Of a stretch of 64,000 nt of DNA, positions 14,604-17,795 are shown in pieces. The first letter of the stretch is position 1. Every line of letters begins with the position of its first letter. The notes beneath the pieces were generated by a model, which made no database searches, was not told the origin of the DNA, and saw only the letters and a program-made list of their open reading frames with translations. Origin of the DNA: an uncultured Gammaproteobacteria bacterium (GTDB lineage Bacteria > Patescibacteriota > Patescibacteriia > UBA9934); contig CAYFME010000008.1 in assembly GCA_964344145.1 (NCBI GenBank), positions 1,913-65,912 on the forward strand, given 5' to 3'. The position numbers and the translations under genes were made by a program.

Positions 14604-15227
14604 TTGTTTTGTATGCAAAGAATGATCCCTTTGTTTTTGATGGCGCTTTTGGTTGTTGGAGCTGGCTGCAGCGAACCTCAGGCGAATGACGATACGCTCG
14701 ATGCGTTGACTGAGCTTGGGACGGACATCGAAGAGATCGCCGATGAGGAGGATGAAGAGGAAGAGGGGGCGGAAGACGATGAGGAGGCGGATGAGGCCGA
14801 AGATGATGATCAAGTAGCAGAATCATTGCCAGTCGATGATGATGCTGACGACACAGACGTTGGCGAGGAGCCCGAGCTTGAGTCTGAGGAAGATGACGAT
14901 GCGGCCGAGCAAGAAGCGCAGGATCTTCCAGAAGAAGACGATGACGAAGAGAAGGACGAGTCGCTTTATGTCTCCATGGAGTCGGGAAATTTTTTCTTCA
15001 GTCCAAGCTCCATCGCCGCAGAGCCTGGTCAGACCGTTGTTATCACCATTGAGCAGAACGCTGGAACGCACACGCTTGTGATCGATGAGATTGGCTACAA
15101 GTCCGGCGTGAGTATTGGCGATGTTCTTACATTCACCGCACCAACCGATCCAGGATCATATGCCTACTACTGCGACGTTGGATCACATCGTGCACTTGGC
15201 ATGGAAGGGACGTTGATTGTGCAATAG
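14604..15227 (+). CDS. Cupredoxin (plastocyanin/azurin-like blue copper) lipoprotein with ~100-aa poly-acidic linker
   Basis: Lipobox LLVVGAGC; C-terminal type-1 copper ligand pattern YYCDVGSHRALGMEG (C..H....M); the linker is a D/E-rich run. Confidence 0.7.
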   Translation: MFCMQRMIPLFLMALLVVGAGCSEPQANDDTLDALTELGTDIEEIADEEDEEEEGAEDDEEADEAEDDDQVAESLPVDDDADDTDVGEEPELESEEDDDAAEQEAQDLPEEDDDEEKDESLYVSMESGNFFFSPSSIAAEPGQTVVITIEQNAGTHTLVIDEIGYKSGVSIGDVLTFTAPTDPGSYAYYCDVGSHRALGMEGTLIVQ

Positions 15228-15272: not shown

Positions 15273-15301
15273 TTGACAAAACCGCCAATTTATGCTATAT
15301 T
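15273..15301 (+). promoter_or_regulatory. Sigma70-like promoter (TTGACA-N17-TATATT) upstream of the DGR target gene
   Basis: Exact TTGACA at 15273-78, a 17-nt spacer and TATATT at 15296-301; follows a cupredoxin-gene terminator hairpin (15234-15260). Confidence 0.6.
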
Positions 15302-15446
15302 CACTGCCTGTTCCTTGTGATTTTTGGCTTTCTTGTTGTCTATTTTTCTAGGTAGACGGCAAGAAGGCCGGAAACAGATAGGTCTTCCCCTTTGCCGTGT
15401 TGGCGAGGGGTACGGCTTTCCCGAAAAGGGGAGGCAAGGATACAAC

Positions 15447-15923
15447 ATGGACACGCTGCTTTCCGCGGCCCACCTGCGTCGTGAGCTGGGCGAGGAGCTC
15501 TTCAAGGCTCTGGTGAGCTCTGACAACACCGGCAAGGTGCGCACGTTCGCCCAGAGCCTCGTCAACGCCGCCAGCGACCGGCTCCCCACCGAGCTGACCC
15601 TCGGCGATCGCACCTACGAGATCCTCGGCTTCCTCAAGCCTGGCGAGACCTCGGTCAAGGGTGACGTCATGGTCCAGCGCGCCAAGGAGATGAACGCCCA
15701 CCTCGGCAAGGAAGACGGCCAGTGGTTCCTGGACCACCAGGACGACATCCCTGAGAGTCTGCGCGGCAAGGTCGCCTTCGTCTTCACCGACTGGCGTTAC
15801 CCCGACGCCTCGCGCGACGTCTACTACGTCTTCTGGCACGACGCTTCCCGTCGCTGGTTCAGGCACTGGCACCACCTCCCCTCCCTGTGGCTTGACCTCG
15901 ACCGTCTTGTGCGTCGCAAGTAG
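15447..15923 (+). CDS. DGR variable (target) protein, 158 aa, variable repeat at extreme C-terminus
   Basis: ATG 15447 preceded by AAGGGGAGG RBS; 62% GC; last 43 codons form the VR matching the downstream TR; no signal peptide seen. Confidence 0.8.
   Translation: MDTLLSAAHLRRELGEELFKALVSSDNTGKVRTFAQSLVNAASDRLPTELTLGDRTYEILGFLKPGETSVKGDVMVQRAKEMNAHLGKEDGQWFLDHQDDIPESLRGKVAFVFTDWRYPDASRDVYYVFWHDASRRWFRHWHHLPSLWLDLDRLVRRK
15792..15920 (+). repeat. DGR variable repeat (VR), 129 bp
   Basis: Aligns gap-free to 16267-16395 with 15 mismatches; every mismatch position is an A in the other (TR) copy. Confidence 0.85.
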
Positions 15924-15984
15924 GCTCTTGGGTCCTGGGGTTCTTGGCACCTGTCTTGGCCCTCGCTCCCTTGGTCCTCTCCGT

Positions 15985-16029
15985 GGCCCCGCATCTTGCT
16001 TGCAAGGTGCGGGGCTTCGACGTTTTTTT
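15985..16029 (+). terminator. GC-rich hairpin plus T7 run downstream of the target gene (terminator and/or DGR VR-flanking stem-loop)
   Basis: GGCCCCGCA-tcttgcttgcaagg-TGCGGGGC followed by cttcgacgTTTTTTT. Confidence 0.6.
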
Positions 16030-16266
16030 ATGCTAAATTTACTTCGGACGGTAAACTTGCAAGGCTCGCGGCCATGGCTTCGAGCGGTTGAAATCCGGAC
16101 GCTGTGACACGCCGGAATATATCAGGCTACGGCTCGGTATAGAGTGCTGTCGCAGCCCCCCAAATGAATATACTTGGTGCGATGTGCTGGTGAGATCACT
16201 TCTCCAAATACGATTCAGCCCAGAGAAGATCGATGGGTGGTGGTGTAGATGGCGCATGGCATACAT

Positions 16267-16395
16267 TGGCGTAACCCCGACGCCTCGCGCGACGTCTACT
16301 ACGTCTACTGGCACGACGATTCCCGTCGCTGGATCAGGAACTGGAACAACCTCCACAACCAGTGGAATGACAACGACCGTCTTGTGCGTCGCAAG
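16267..16395 (+). repeat. DGR template repeat (TR), 129 bp
   Basis: Intergenic copy of the VR. It holds about 30 adenines, 15 of which differ in the VR. In the VR frame it encodes WRNPDASRDVYYVYWHDDSRRWIRNWNNLHNQWNDNDRLVRRK, with the adenines concentrated in AAC/AAT codons. The in-frame TAA where VR has TAC confirms it is non-coding. Confidence 0.85.
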
Positions 16396-16406
16396 TCTGT
16401 TCATTG

Positions 16407-16436
16407 CAAACACTCCCGCTGATTCGGGAGTGTTTG
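16407..16436. other. Perfect 12-bp stem-loop immediately 3' of the TR and abutting the avd stop codon
   Basis: CAAACACTCCCG-ctgatt-CGGGAGTGTTTG. Confidence 0.6.
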
Positions 16437-16437
16437 G

Positions 16438-16758
16438 TTATCTCGCGTGCTTCATCCAGCCACCGAGCATTTTTCCTATCTCCGCTAGTTGTTGAGAGAG
16501 TCGTGCGAATGCCTTGTGATCTACGAGCTTCATCTCCCAGGCGAGCTGCAGGAAGAATTTGAGCGCATCAAATTTCGCGGCTGCCTTCTCAAGAATTGAT
16601 CGCTTATCATGTTTGCTCGAGAATGAAGCCAGTAGGATGAGCTCAATCGTTTCCGTAAATAGGGAATCTATTTTTACTCCAATGGTGTAACGGGAAAGCC
16701 GTGGTAGGTTGGACAACGTTCCATGCCAACATTTATATGCATCGCTGAGTTTATGCAA
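16438..16758 (-). CDS. avd: DGR accessory variability determinant (Avd; four-helix-bundle / 23S-rRNA-IVS protein family)
   Basis: 106 aa; AYKCWHG...FDALKFFLQLAWEMKL...LAEIGKMLGGWM resembles Bordetella bAvd (ATKCYDQ...LAMLRFWLRFLAG...AEVGRILGSWI); TTG start at 16758; on the opposite strand to the TR and RT. Confidence 0.75.
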   Translation of the reverse strand: MHKLSDAYKCWHGTLSNLPRLSRYTIGVKIDSLFTETIELILLASFSSKHDKRSILEKAAAKFDALKFFLQLAWEMKLVDHKAFARLSQQLAEIGKMLGGWMKHAR

Positions 16759-16850
16759 AATCGTAACATCACCTCGGAGATTATCGGGGGGGGGGTCGCA
16801 AAAGAGGTCTGTTTTCGCATACGCTCGAGGAGATTGTTTCGTTTGATAAT

Positions 16851-17795
16851 GTGTTACTTGCCTGGTCGGAGTTTGTCAAAGGCAAACGATCGAAGCAGGA
16901 TGTGCAGGTCTTTTCCAGAGCGTTGATCGACAATATCGATGTGTTGCATTGGGAGTTAGCATCAGGATTGTATCGTCATGGCGGGTATCAACATTTTGTT
17001 ATTCATGATCCCAAGCGTCGGGATATTCATAAGGCCTCTGTCCGCGATCGTTTAGTGCATCACTGTGTACATAGAATGCTCTATCCCTATTTTGATCGTC
17101 GATTTATCGCAGATAGTTTTTCGTGCCGAACAGACAAAGGCACGCACCGAGCAATGGATCGCTTCCGTTCCATGGCCAACAAGGTGAGTCACAATCATAC
17201 GAGGACGTGCTGGGTACTGAAGATGGATATTCGTAAGTTTTTCGCGAGCATCAACCAAAACACATTGCTCCGTCAGCTTGACGGTTTTATTGTTGATACA
17301 CGGATTGTTTATTTGTTGAGAGAGATTATTTTCAGCTTTCATACAGTGCCCGGCTTTGGGCTCCCTCTTGGCAATCTCACATCACAGCTTTTCGTAAATG
17401 TGTACATGAACGAGTTCGATCAGTTCGTGAAACATGCGTTGGGTATCAAGTTCTATATTCGTTATGCGGATGACTTTGTAATCCTTTCGCGCGATCGTGA
17501 GCACCTGAATGAATTGATTCCCGAGATCGATGCGTTTTTGTTCGAAAGATTGCTCTTGCAACTTCATCCGGATAAGACGTTCATCAAGACGCTTGCATCC
17601 GGAGTGGATTTTTTGGGATGGGTTCATTTCCCTGATCATCGAGTCTTACGCCGCTCAAGCCGTCATCGCATGTTTCGCAAGTTGCGGGGGGATCCACGAG
17701 AGGAGGTTTATCAGTCGTATAGGGGTCTGTTAGCCCATGGTAATGGGGGAAAACTTCAGAGAAAGTTACTGGATGATTATTGGATGTTATCGTGA
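16851..17795 (+). CDS. DGR-type reverse transcriptase; annotated from first in-frame GTG but conserved N-terminus continues upstream to 16767
   Basis: RT motifs 1-7 include CRTDKGTHRAM, the DGR-diagnostic LPLGNLTSQLFVNVY (SQ in place of QG) and IRYADDFVILS (YADD box). It closely parallels Bordetella phage bRT. 42% GC. Confidence 0.9.
   Translation: MLLAWSEFVKGKRSKQDVQVFSRALIDNIDVLHWELASGLYRHGGYQHFVIHDPKRRDIHKASVRDRLVHHCVHRMLYPYFDRRFIADSFSCRTDKGTHRAMDRFRSMANKVSHNHTRTCWVLKMDIRKFFASINQNTLLRQLDGFIVDTRIVYLLREIIFSFHTVPGFGLPLGNLTSQLFVNVYMNEFDQFVKHALGIKFYIRYADDFVILSRDREHLNELIPEIDAFLFERLLLQLHPDKTFIKTLASGVDFLGWVHFPDHRVLRRSSRHRMFRKLRGDPREEVYQSYRGLLAHGNGGKLQRKLLDDYWMLS

Follow-up and report, generated by a model that had tools for sequence, protein, structure and literature searches.

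The locus described here is very probably a genuine and complete chromosomal diversity-generating retroelement (DGR) of the Patescibacteria (CPR) type. It lies in a 64-kb stretch of DNA (the window), and its components follow the order target gene with variable repeat (VR), structured leader RNA, template repeat (TR), inverted avd, simple-sequence repeat and reverse transcriptase (RT). As a class the element is already known and ordinary, the type being common in ultra-small "candidate phyla" bacteria. The interesting part is what is found clade-wide: the leader RNA and the repeat between avd and the RT.

A complete retroelement in a cellular neighbourhood

The hallmark features of a DGR are all present, namely a TR/VR pair, a 3'-terminal VR, an RT resembling Bordetella bRT and an Avd-type accessory protein. 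A sequence-only reading of this DNA had proposed a complete DGR, and all four components (target with VR, TR, Avd and RT) were found at the positions it gave. It had also placed the cassette in a housekeeping rather than a prophage setting, which agrees with the families encoded nearby: SMC_N, DHH/DHHA1 and ClpP, together with cupredoxin, VWA, YceI, NDH-2 and VanW. The ORFs of at least 150 aa within ~10 kb gave no match to an integrase or phage family.

Upstream of the target gene there is a putative promoter (15273..15301, + strand; TTGACA-17-TATATT with a TG before the -10 hexamer) that matches the consensus at 11/12 positions. It was the sole match of the promoter scan, which found no consensus promoter for the TR RNA, avd or the RT. 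Downstream of the target gene a GC-rich hairpin, CCCCGCA...TGCGGGG followed by a run of seven T (15987..16029, + strand), is likely to be its terminator, the terminator scan having left it uncalled because the T run begins 8 nt past the stem. A second hairpin, of 12 bp (16409..16434), is seen in the sequence and in the MFE fold between the convergent TR RNA and avd, where it could act either as a bidirectional terminator or as an Avd-binding stem-loop.

Target gene, variable repeat and template repeat

The target gene (15447..15923, + strand) encodes 158 residues, its homologues likewise starting at MDTL. In the protein three helices are predicted at the N-terminus and a C-type-lectin-like domain after them at the C-terminus, the structure model being similar to C-type lectin domains. 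There is no evident signal peptide. It had been described as belonging to no recognisable family, and searches of Pfam and NCBIfam indeed gave no match; nor does the family have a name in the sources searched.

The VR (15792..15921, + strand) forms the final 43 codons of the target and aligns with the non-coding TR (16267..16396, + strand) ungapped and in register over 130 nt, with a spacer of 345 nt. The two repeats had been correctly located before, with the length given as 129 rather than 130 nt. There are 15 mismatches, each of them a TR adenine that is C (8) or T (7) in the VR and each at codon position 1 or 2. As adenine makes up 30 of the 130 TR bases, the probability of all 15 falling at adenines by chance is ~2.8e-10. 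The VR thus bears the footprint of adenine-specific mutagenesis templated by the TR, and the A-independent differences that the sequence-only reading gave as the mark of an ordinary duplication are not seen. The TR retains its AAC codons, and its 22 mutable codons could encode ~4.5e17 protein variants.

Over the final 23 nt (GACCGTCTTGTGCGTCGCAAGT) VR and TR are identical and the flanks diverge from the next base; judged from the sequence, this shared end would be an IMH/IMH*-like invariant 3' end. No further VR or copy of the TR was found on either strand of the window, even when any base was allowed at the A positions. Three other assemblies carry the element, all of them from one project, and their VR is identical to that of the window.

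Reverse transcriptase and Avd

The RT (16797..17795, + strand) matches RVT_1 and carries LGNLTSQ (17367-17387) and YADD (17463-17474). Its best match among solved structures is Bordetella bRT (8ub7) with an E-value of 2.1e-41, the next best being group II or retron-type RTs at 5e-18; LGNLTSQ aligns with IGSLTSQ of bRT, the (I/L)GxxxSQ motif of motif 4. Matches to the NCBIfam group II and retron models are weak and all far under the cut-offs. The earlier assignment to the DGR clade is therefore upheld, and by its structure matches the RT is bRT-like rather than a retron or group II enzyme, the placement that had been named as counting against a DGR.

The avd gene lies on the opposite strand (16438..16758) and encodes 106 residues from a TTG start preceded by GAGGTG. 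The protein scores 52.9 bits against Pfam bAvd (E = 5.9e-14, cut-off 40), which supports its earlier assignment to the Avd family, though at 71 bits it misses the equivalog cut-off of 80 for NCBIfam DivGenRetAVD.

Relatives in Patescibacteria

At least 7,848 homologous RTs were found at E ≤ 1e-60, and at least 589 related RTs are in Patescibacteria genomes. The cassette anatomy is common to dozens of related loci. In all 76 of the 76 related loci that have upstream sequence, avd is found in the same place and on the same strand, so the inversion noted earlier is real but is the norm in the Patescibacteria clade and does not set this locus apart. Of 80 loci, 65 have an A-biased TR/VR pair in the same order. 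Going by a single-line description in Wu et al. 2018 (PMC5758913), we take the layout of target-VR, TR, opposite-strand avd and RT to be the architecture termed "B3" there.

Related elements vary their VRs between samples at TR-adenine positions, i.e. they are active in nature. Two of them (L117 and L118) differ at 15 positions in 3,396 bp, all within the VR and 14 at TR adenines. Another (L108) differs from two relatives (L111 and L112) at 11 and 14 VR positions respectively, and the 14 distinct positions are all at TR adenines.

These observations bear on the simplest alternative, that an ordinary 130-nt duplication happens to lie near an unrelated retron or group II intron RT. All that can be said for it is the generic nature of the RVT_1 match and the weak NCBIfam matches described above. 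It is already refuted by the adenine specificity of the differences (15/15 at adenines of one copy, P ~3e-10), by the structural match to bRT, which is the best by 23 orders of magnitude, and by the sharing of the cassette among dozens of loci; no intron or retron RNA family was found either. We consider the chance of its being correct to be negligible.

A structured RNA precedes the template repeat

The ~130 nt directly 5' of the TR form a structured RNA (16137..16280, + strand) that is conserved and supported by covariation. It contains three helices, P1 (16177-16188 pairing with 16251-16262), P2 (~16189-16205) and P3 (16218-16221 pairing with 16235-16238). When 41 loci were analysed with RNAalifold, compensatory changes were seen in 18 of the 22 leader pairs. 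In the leader alignment 94.9% of cells are paired as against 74.0% in shuffles, none of 500 shuffles reaching as high a value, and there are 226 double-change cells as against 65 in shuffles. A covariance model of the leader (R1) has a single match in the window, of 94.8 bits, and also finds loci outside its training set. A search of Rfam with the leader region gave only chance miRNA-like matches.

The leader and the TR are bracketed by a duplex between a1 (AAUGAAUA; 16163..16170, + strand) and the complementary a2 (UGUUCAUU; 16398..16405, + strand). Adjoining a2, CAAG at 16392-16395 pairs with CUUG at 16173-16176. Across the clade 84% of the a1/a2 positions are paired, compared with 65% when partners are shuffled (0/2000 shuffles as high). 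Folding of the window sequence alone recovers a1/a2, P1, P3 and the terminal hairpin in the MFE structure (z = -2.9). The junction is also conserved, with A47, U49 and G52 invariant in 45/45 sequences and G168 present in 42/45.

Neither a leader RNA 5' of the TR nor a repeat between avd and the RT is mentioned in Wu 2018, Roux 2021, Handa 2024, Paul 2022 or Weinberg 2017, or came up in full-text literature searches.

The reverse transcriptase start and the repeat between avd and RT

The start of the RT had been placed at GTG 16851, and this has to be revised. Homology to bRT and to the clade RTs begins at ~16818 (TLEEIVSFDN), and GTG 16851 is simply where the RT frame has its first canonical start codon. 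After a stop at 16764-16766 the frame is open from 16767, with no ATG, GTG or TTG ahead of 16851. In most relatives the RT has its own ATG; in 19 loci, the window element among them, it has no start of its own.

Between the divergent avd and RT lies a G10/C10 homopolymer (16786..16795), the window's sole G/C run of at least 7. Nearly all relatives have a G-run or a dinucleotide repeat at this site, a dinucleotide repeat replacing the G tract in six related loci, and the repeats are of the types G8-17, (GT)n, (GA)n and (TC)n. Of the runs of at least 8 in 745 kb of related loci, 68 are at the avd-RT site and 2 elsewhere. At a tract length of G10 no canonical start is in frame with the RT. At G11 the RT would be read from the ATG at 16753 and avd, on the opposite strand, from the ATG at 16820. 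The start-less loci (19/19) all have an upstream ATG whose frame enters the RT at some tract length, as do about two thirds of the RTs that have their own start.

We infer that expression of the RT, and perhaps of Avd too, probably depends on the G10 tract. As a canonical RT start comes into frame with G11 and not with G10, the window copy may be in an OFF or low-expression state, which slippage of the DNA or during transcription could reverse. The tract is G10 in 4/4 assemblies of the window element. One population pair (L053 with G9 and L089 with G10) is identical over 9,409 bp save for tract length. This is the only same-population comparison in which the length is not constant: five other contig groups showed no difference, tract length being monomorphic in P0147, P0159, P0183 and P0137, and P0126 and P0201 were uninformative because the tract is inside a called ORF or absent.

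Several further readings of the repeat were rejected. The relative frame of avd and RT is approximately uniform across loci (18, 33 and 24), so the two frames are not tied across the repeat by a coding constraint, nor is there enrichment for an ON phase. In all 19 start-less loci the RT and Avd are ON at the same tract length. This was not accepted as independent evidence, since the upstream ATGs, in the cases inspected, are antisense to the opposite gene's His (CAT) codons in a codon-aligned frame, which makes the shared length largely a by-product. The poly-G is not a Shine-Dalgarno mimic, as the spacing of 13-19 nt to the RT ATG is too long, and pairing with the CU-rich tail after a2 was ruled out because the tail does not covary where (GT)n or (GA)n replaces the tract.

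Could the missing start instead reflect decay, a frameshift in the G tract having severed the RT from its start so that the VR differences are fossils of past activity? Such a history would fit with the absence of any in-frame ATG, GTG or TTG between the stop and GTG 16851, when homology begins at ~16818, and with a VR that is identical in every assembly carrying the element. We nevertheless regard it as unlikely. The RT frame is uninterrupted over ~330 codons and keeps all of its motifs, the TR keeps 30 adenines and its AAC codons, the leader still scores 94.8 bits and relatives in the clade are active. The same start-less arrangement is found in 18 other loci with unbroken RTs of 57-63% identity, and this recurrence is not what independent decay predicts.

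A more serious alternative to a slippage switch is that the G tract and the dinucleotide repeats have a fixed role in structure or regulation, whether as an insulator of non-B DNA separating two divergent promoters, as a portion of a promoter spacer or as a motif in the 5' UTR, with the RT starting at a non-canonical codon such as CTG 16809 or ATT 16833. Poly(G), (GT)n and (GA)n are each well known to form non-B DNA, tract length is stable in almost all same-population contigs, the uniform frame relation shows no enrichment for ON, and most relatives have their RT ATG downstream of the tract. Start-less relatives read R-R-I-Q-F where the others read M-K-I-Q-L, and the Ile codon could therefore act as the RT start. 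However, the only property that G8-17, (GT)n, (GA)n and (TC)n have in common is that they are repetitive, and (GT)13-16 is too long for a promoter spacer. Neither the excess of read-through ATGs in the start-less loci (19/19 against about two thirds) nor the pair differing by a single G favours a fixed element. On balance we see it as a real possibility, albeit one somewhat short of probable.

Comparison with known systems

DGRs of CPR/Patescibacteria are reportedly the subject of Paul et al. 2017. The window element is a member of this group with no difference in kind. Judged from its relatives, it shares the host group of the CPR elements described as B3 (PMC5758913) and as "DGR clade 2" (Roux et al. 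2021, PMC8144416) and, on our reading of B3, the order target-VR, TR, inverted avd and RT. Like them it is cellular and not viral, and has a small target that lacks a recognisable domain or membrane segment and carries its VR in a predicted C-type-lectin-like fold.

The DGR of Bordetella phage BPP-1 (mtd, avd, TR, Sp, brt) has a homologous RT (E = 2e-41) and likewise a four-helix-bundle Avd partner, adenine-specific transfer from TR to VR, an identical 3' end of the two repeats and a C-type-lectin-fold protein that carries the VR at its 3' end, this fold being predicted for the window target. The two differ in that the BPP-1 target is a phage tail fibre and the window target a small chromosomal protein, and in that avd of BPP-1 is co-oriented and upstream of the TR whereas here it is inverted and downstream. 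The structured RNA is 3' of the TR in BPP-1 (Sp; Rfam-type motif RT-10, PMC5737381) and 5' of it in the window. The window element also lacks the GC hairpin that directly follows the VR of BPP-1, which in turn has no homopolymer at brt corresponding to G10. Treponema TvpA, Thermus TaqVP and archaeal AvpA are small stand-alone variable proteins with a C-type-lectin fold; none has detectable sequence similarity to the target, whose N-terminal three-helix segment is specific to its own family. TvpA has a lipoprotein/secretion signal, and none is evident in the window target.

The a1/a2 duplex gives the RNA the topology of retron msr-msd RNA, in which an inverted-repeat duplex joins a 5' structured non-coding part to the 3' end of the template. 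By analogy, a nucleotide on the 5' side could prime from its 2'-OH. The analogy is functional only, there being no relationship to retrons in sequence or RT clade, and the product is msDNA in retrons as opposed to a homing cDNA in a DGR.

The repeat recalls phase-variable loci of Neisseria, Haemophilus and Campylobacter, where poly-G/C or dinucleotide tracts occupy the 5' end or the promoter region of divergent genes. As in contingency loci, such tracts are otherwise absent from the genome and one population pair is one repeat unit apart. Its position between avd and the RT is that of a contingency-locus repeat, and the window element is a candidate for such a locus, with putative ON/OFF switching. 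The differences are that the host here is an uncultured Patescibacterium and that the function gated would itself be a mutator.

A proposed mechanism and its implications

From these comparisons a working model can be put forward. A separate non-coding transcript would run from ~16150 to ~16436 and comprise the folded leader, the TR and a short 3' tail. The a1/a2 duplex and the CUUG/CAAG pairing would place the leader beside the 3' end of the TR, where RT-Avd may begin cDNA synthesis through cis-priming. The first templated base would probably be the almost invariant G in the TR's terminal ...CGCAA, by analogy with G117 of the Bordetella TR. The RT would misread template adenines and the resulting cDNA would replace the VR, so recoding a surface of the C-type-lectin-like domain in a putative binding protein that is small and apparently cytoplasmic. 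The priming site and the role of the repeat are both modelled on other systems.

Extended to the clade, the proposal is that a primer-bearing structured RNA lies 5' of the template, permuted in retron-like fashion relative to the Bordetella TR-Sp RNA and closed by a1/a2, and that RT/Avd output is gated by a slippery repeat between or within their 5' ends. We offer this tentatively, as something that could be so but is rather less than probable.

For cataloguing, the element contributes a further un-annotated target family to the thousands of CPR DGRs, a useful but unsurprising addition. The conserved slippery tract where the RT and Avd frames begin provides a concrete, testable hypothesis for DGR regulation, to which the many clade RTs without a start codon of their own are also relevant. 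The current model of DGR reverse transcription comes from one phage, in which a structured RNA follows the template; the strongly covarying RNA of the present, very large clade lies ahead of it, on the opposite side. If priming does work from the 5' side, the RNA requirements of DGRs would be more plastic than assumed, with a bearing on the engineering of DGRs for directed evolution. If the gating proposal is also true, a targeted hypermutator would itself be switched or throttled by a second, untargeted hypermutable tract.

A complete diversity-generating cassette

The target ORF (15447-15923, + strand) encodes a protein of 158 residues. Its final 130 nucleotides, the variable repeat (VR; 15792-15921), are repeated without gaps and on the same strand as the template repeat (TR; 16267-16396). 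The two copies differ at 15 positions, each of which is an adenine in the TR and a cytosine or thymine in the VR, and all 15 fall at the first or second position of a codon. Given 30 adenines in 130 nucleotides, the probability that 15 random differences would all lie at adenines of one copy is ~2.8e-10. The adenine-independent differences that the sequence-only reading had set out as the alternative to a diversity-generating retroelement (DGR) are not seen. No further copy of the TR was found in the 64-kb window, even with the adenines treated as wildcards. The TR contains 22 mutable codons, giving ~4.5e17 possible protein variants. None of the 15 substitutions is A to G (eight are A to C and seven A to T); pooled over 66 TR/VR pairs from the Patescibacteria (CPR) relatives, A to G makes up 58% of 1,186 changes. 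The share per locus is overdispersed, ranging from 0 to 0.96, and one other locus, L071, likewise has 0 of 14. The missing class could reflect a spectrum specific to the reverse transcriptase (RT) or selection favouring aromatic or hydrophobic side chains.

The accessory gene, avd (16438-16758, - strand; 106 residues), matches the Pfam family bAvd with 52.9 bits, above the cut-off of 40. Its earlier assignment to the Avd family therefore stands at the level of Pfam, but not of the strict NCBIfam equivalog, where it scores 71 bits, under the cut-off of 80. The RT ORF, which ends at 17795, matches RVT_1, and among all solved structures the closest is the Bordetella phage RT, bRT (8ub7; E 2.1e-41), with LGNLTSQ of the RT aligned to IGSLTSQ of bRT. 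The next best, group II or retron-type RTs, reach only E 5e-18, and the enzyme is DGR-like rather than of either of those types. The neighbouring genes are of chromosomal housekeeping types (SMC_N, cupredoxin, DHH/DHHA1, ClpP, NDH-2, YceI and VanW) and, as had been proposed, neither an integrase nor a phage family is seen among flanking ORFs of at least 150 residues within ~10 kb. All four components (target with VR, TR, Avd and RT) are present as first described; the identification as a DGR is real and was rightly interpreted, though the class itself is common.

Several other features of the region were noted. GC content contrasts strongly within the cassette, from ~64-66% in the target gene to ~42-48% in avd and the RT gene, the mean of the window being 55%. 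From a promoter-like site to its ATG the target gene has a leader of ~145 nucleotides (15302-15446) containing a hairpin (15315-15379), for which Rfam gives chance miRNA-like matches alone. In the cupredoxin-domain protein upstream (14604-15227) the N-terminal half is long, highly acidic and of low complexity, and its coding sequence consists of imperfect GAN repeats. At 62953-63030, adjoining a tRNA-Arg, ARAGORN predicts a tRNA with the four-base anticodon cgtc and no assigned identity.

Relationship to known DGRs

A protein search returned at least 7,848 RT homologues at E ≤ 1e-60, and at least 589 loci with related RTs were found when one genome was scanned for each species. The best 80 of these are 55-63% identical and bear names of Patescibacteria-type or unclassified MAGs, except for two contig pairs labelled "uncultured Gammaproteobacteria". 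Upstream sequence is available for 76 loci, and in every one of them the gene next to the RT on that side is avd, in the opposite orientation; the inverted Avd is therefore the norm for the clade. An adenine-biased TR/VR pair in the same order as in the window is found in 65 of the 80 loci; most of the others are cut off upstream. The layout runs from the VR through a spacer of ~260-600 nucleotides to the TR, which ends 0-41 nucleotides before the 3' end of avd. Two descriptions in the literature fit the element: the B3 architecture, which accounts for 90% of CPR DGRs and is almost absent elsewhere (Wu et al., PMC5758913), and DGR clade 2, which is restricted to Patescibacteria, cell-encoded and has targets without recognisable domains (Roux et al., PMC8144416). 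As it shows every defining DGR feature that could be tested and fits B3, the element belongs to an already known kind.

The target protein

The target has no match in Pfam or NCBIfam, in agreement with the sequence-only reading, and its family is un-named. The protein search suggested there yielded 86 homologues, mostly of 152-160 residues, from Patescibacteria and Magasanikbacteria MAGs and metagenomes. Their alignment shows a conserved N-terminal two thirds and, in the last 45 residues, conserved Trp and RVLRRK alternating with variable columns. Foldseek gave a single, weak match (E 0.03). A C-type-lectin-like scaffold has been predicted for CPR targets (Roux et al., PMC8144416), and a divergent, minimal version of it is a supported, though not proven, model for this protein.

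The close homologues P0035 (L084) and P0042 (L085/L086) are solitary: metabolic genes surround them, and within 4 kb of either there is neither an RT or TR nor the leader RNA (see below). They could be paralogues that are not diversified, or targets served by a DGR at a distant site. P0016 is followed directly by the leader RNA at a contig end. In L087 ~3.4 kb separates a homologue with the leader RNA (1-629) from a gene resembling Zot, of filamentous-phage assembly, so a mobile element may carry at least this relative. P0002-P0004, at ~270 residues about twice the usual length and with bit scores above those of single-length relatives, may be tandem fusions.

Activity in situ

An identical RT with the same G10 tract between avd and the RT gene occurs in three more assemblies of the same project, and the two that reach the VR carry the same VR as the window. 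L081-L083, independent assemblies of the window's population, have breaks within the cassette, at 15535, at 15671 and, within the TR, at 16277; four SNPs of L081 (15662-15708) fall in the target's non-variable part.

Elsewhere in the clade, contigs from different samples (L117/L118/L120 and L108/L111/L112) are the same but for the VR, where they differ nearly always at sites of TR adenines. L117 and L118, which carry the RT P0183, have 15 differences over 3.4 kb, all in the VR and 14 at TR adenines. Those carrying the RT P0169 (L108/L111/L112) have 11 to 14 differences, again all in the VR, and all 14 distinct positions are TR adenines. Such VR-only differences between samples are direct evidence that DGRs of this clade are active in situ.

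A conserved structured RNA precedes the TR

Immediately 5' of the TR, 130-140 nucleotides are conserved throughout the clade and fold into a 12-bp long-range helix, P1, around two hairpins. Compensatory changes are seen in 18 of the 22 pairs of this leader RNA. Within the alignment 94.9% of the cells are paired, as against 74.0 ± 0.9% in shuffles of the same alignment (0 of 500 as high) and 31-56% in register-shifted controls, and there are 226 double-change cells as against 65 in the shuffles. A covariance model has a single match in the window (16137-16280; 94.8 bits) and also matches immediately 5' of the TR in ten loci outside its training set. Rfam 15 has no family at this position. On its 3' side the TR is followed by the antisense of avd; the covarying structure lies 5'.

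Just 5' of P1, the segment a1 (AAUGAAUA; 16163-16170, + strand) is complementary to a2 (UGUUCAUU; 16398-16405, + strand), which directly follows the TR. Over 45 loci the seven a1/a2 pairs are 84% canonical, compared with 65 ± 2% for shuffled partners (0 of 2000 as high), with 44 double changes against a shuffle mean of 12. Nearly invariant nucleotides (xACUUGG opposite CGCAACU) extend the duplex into the 3'-terminal bases of the TR. Folding a single 286-nucleotide sequence from the window recovers a1/a2, P1, the helix P3 and a terminal 12-bp hairpin (z = -2.9). In many relatives (L003, L005, L009, L029, L044, L055, L070, L078 and L080) a1 can also form a hairpin with a complement lying a few bases 5' of it (CUUCA-AAAAA-UGAAG and compensatory variants), which would compete with a1/a2; this hairpin is absent from the window.

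A simple repeat between avd and the RT

The RT had been placed at 16851-17795. Its end is correct; homology to bRT and the clade RTs already begins at ~16818 (TLEEIVSFDN), upstream of that start. GTG 16851 is the first ATG, GTG or TTG past the in-frame stop at 16764-16766, and the frame is open and conserved 5' of it (16767-16850). Starting at 16851 would cost the N-terminal extension conserved residues; in bRT this extension contacts Avd (bioRxiv 10.1101/2023.10.23.563531).

Between the divergent avd and RT genes lies a tract of G10 (16786-16795), the sole G/C run of at least seven in the window. Related loci totalling 745 kb have 68 G/C runs of at least eight at the avd-RT site and two elsewhere. 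A tract of 6-17 nucleotides (mode 10) is present in 70 of 77 loci, the window and 69 relatives, and six of the remaining seven have (GT)n, (GA)n or (TC)n in its place; L066, without avd sequence, is a seventh dinucleotide-repeat locus. In 19 loci (the window and 18 relatives) there is no canonical RT start from the tract to the conserved N-terminus, and for each of the 19 there is a tract length at which an ATG 5' of the tract is in frame with the RT: the assembled length in five, one base more in seven and two bases more in seven. In the window G11 would bring ATG 16753 into frame with the RT and, on the opposite strand, ATG 16820 into frame with avd. L053 and L089, from one population, differ over 9,409 bp solely by G9 versus G10. 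We infer that the tract is a slippage-prone element throttling or switching the production of RT and Avd. Against a simple switch, all other same-population groups are monomorphic for the tract, the G10 length being repeated in four assemblies, the frame of avd relative to that of the RT is approximately uniform over loci, and most clade RTs have their own ATG 3' of the tract. A fixed role, structural or as a UTR, is a serious rival to slippage.

Discussion

In Bordetella a structured RNA, Sp, lies 3' of the TR and bears the priming adenosine, and reviews describe DGRs as having such a "trailing" RNA (PMC8867640, PMC5737381); here the structured RNA precedes the TR, on the side opposite to Sp. 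The search of other DGRs by Handa et al. covered only 40 nucleotides upstream and 100 downstream of the TR. In topology the leader and a1/a2 resemble a retron msr-msd, and by this analogy the leader might provide the primer strand, at the junction of a1/a2 with CUUG/CAAG. We found no description of the leader RNA or the repeat in the DGR literature searched, which did not include Paul et al. 2017, so an earlier description is possible. Both are properties of the whole clade and not peculiar to this locus, which opens two concrete, testable questions, on the priming of DGRs and on their regulation.
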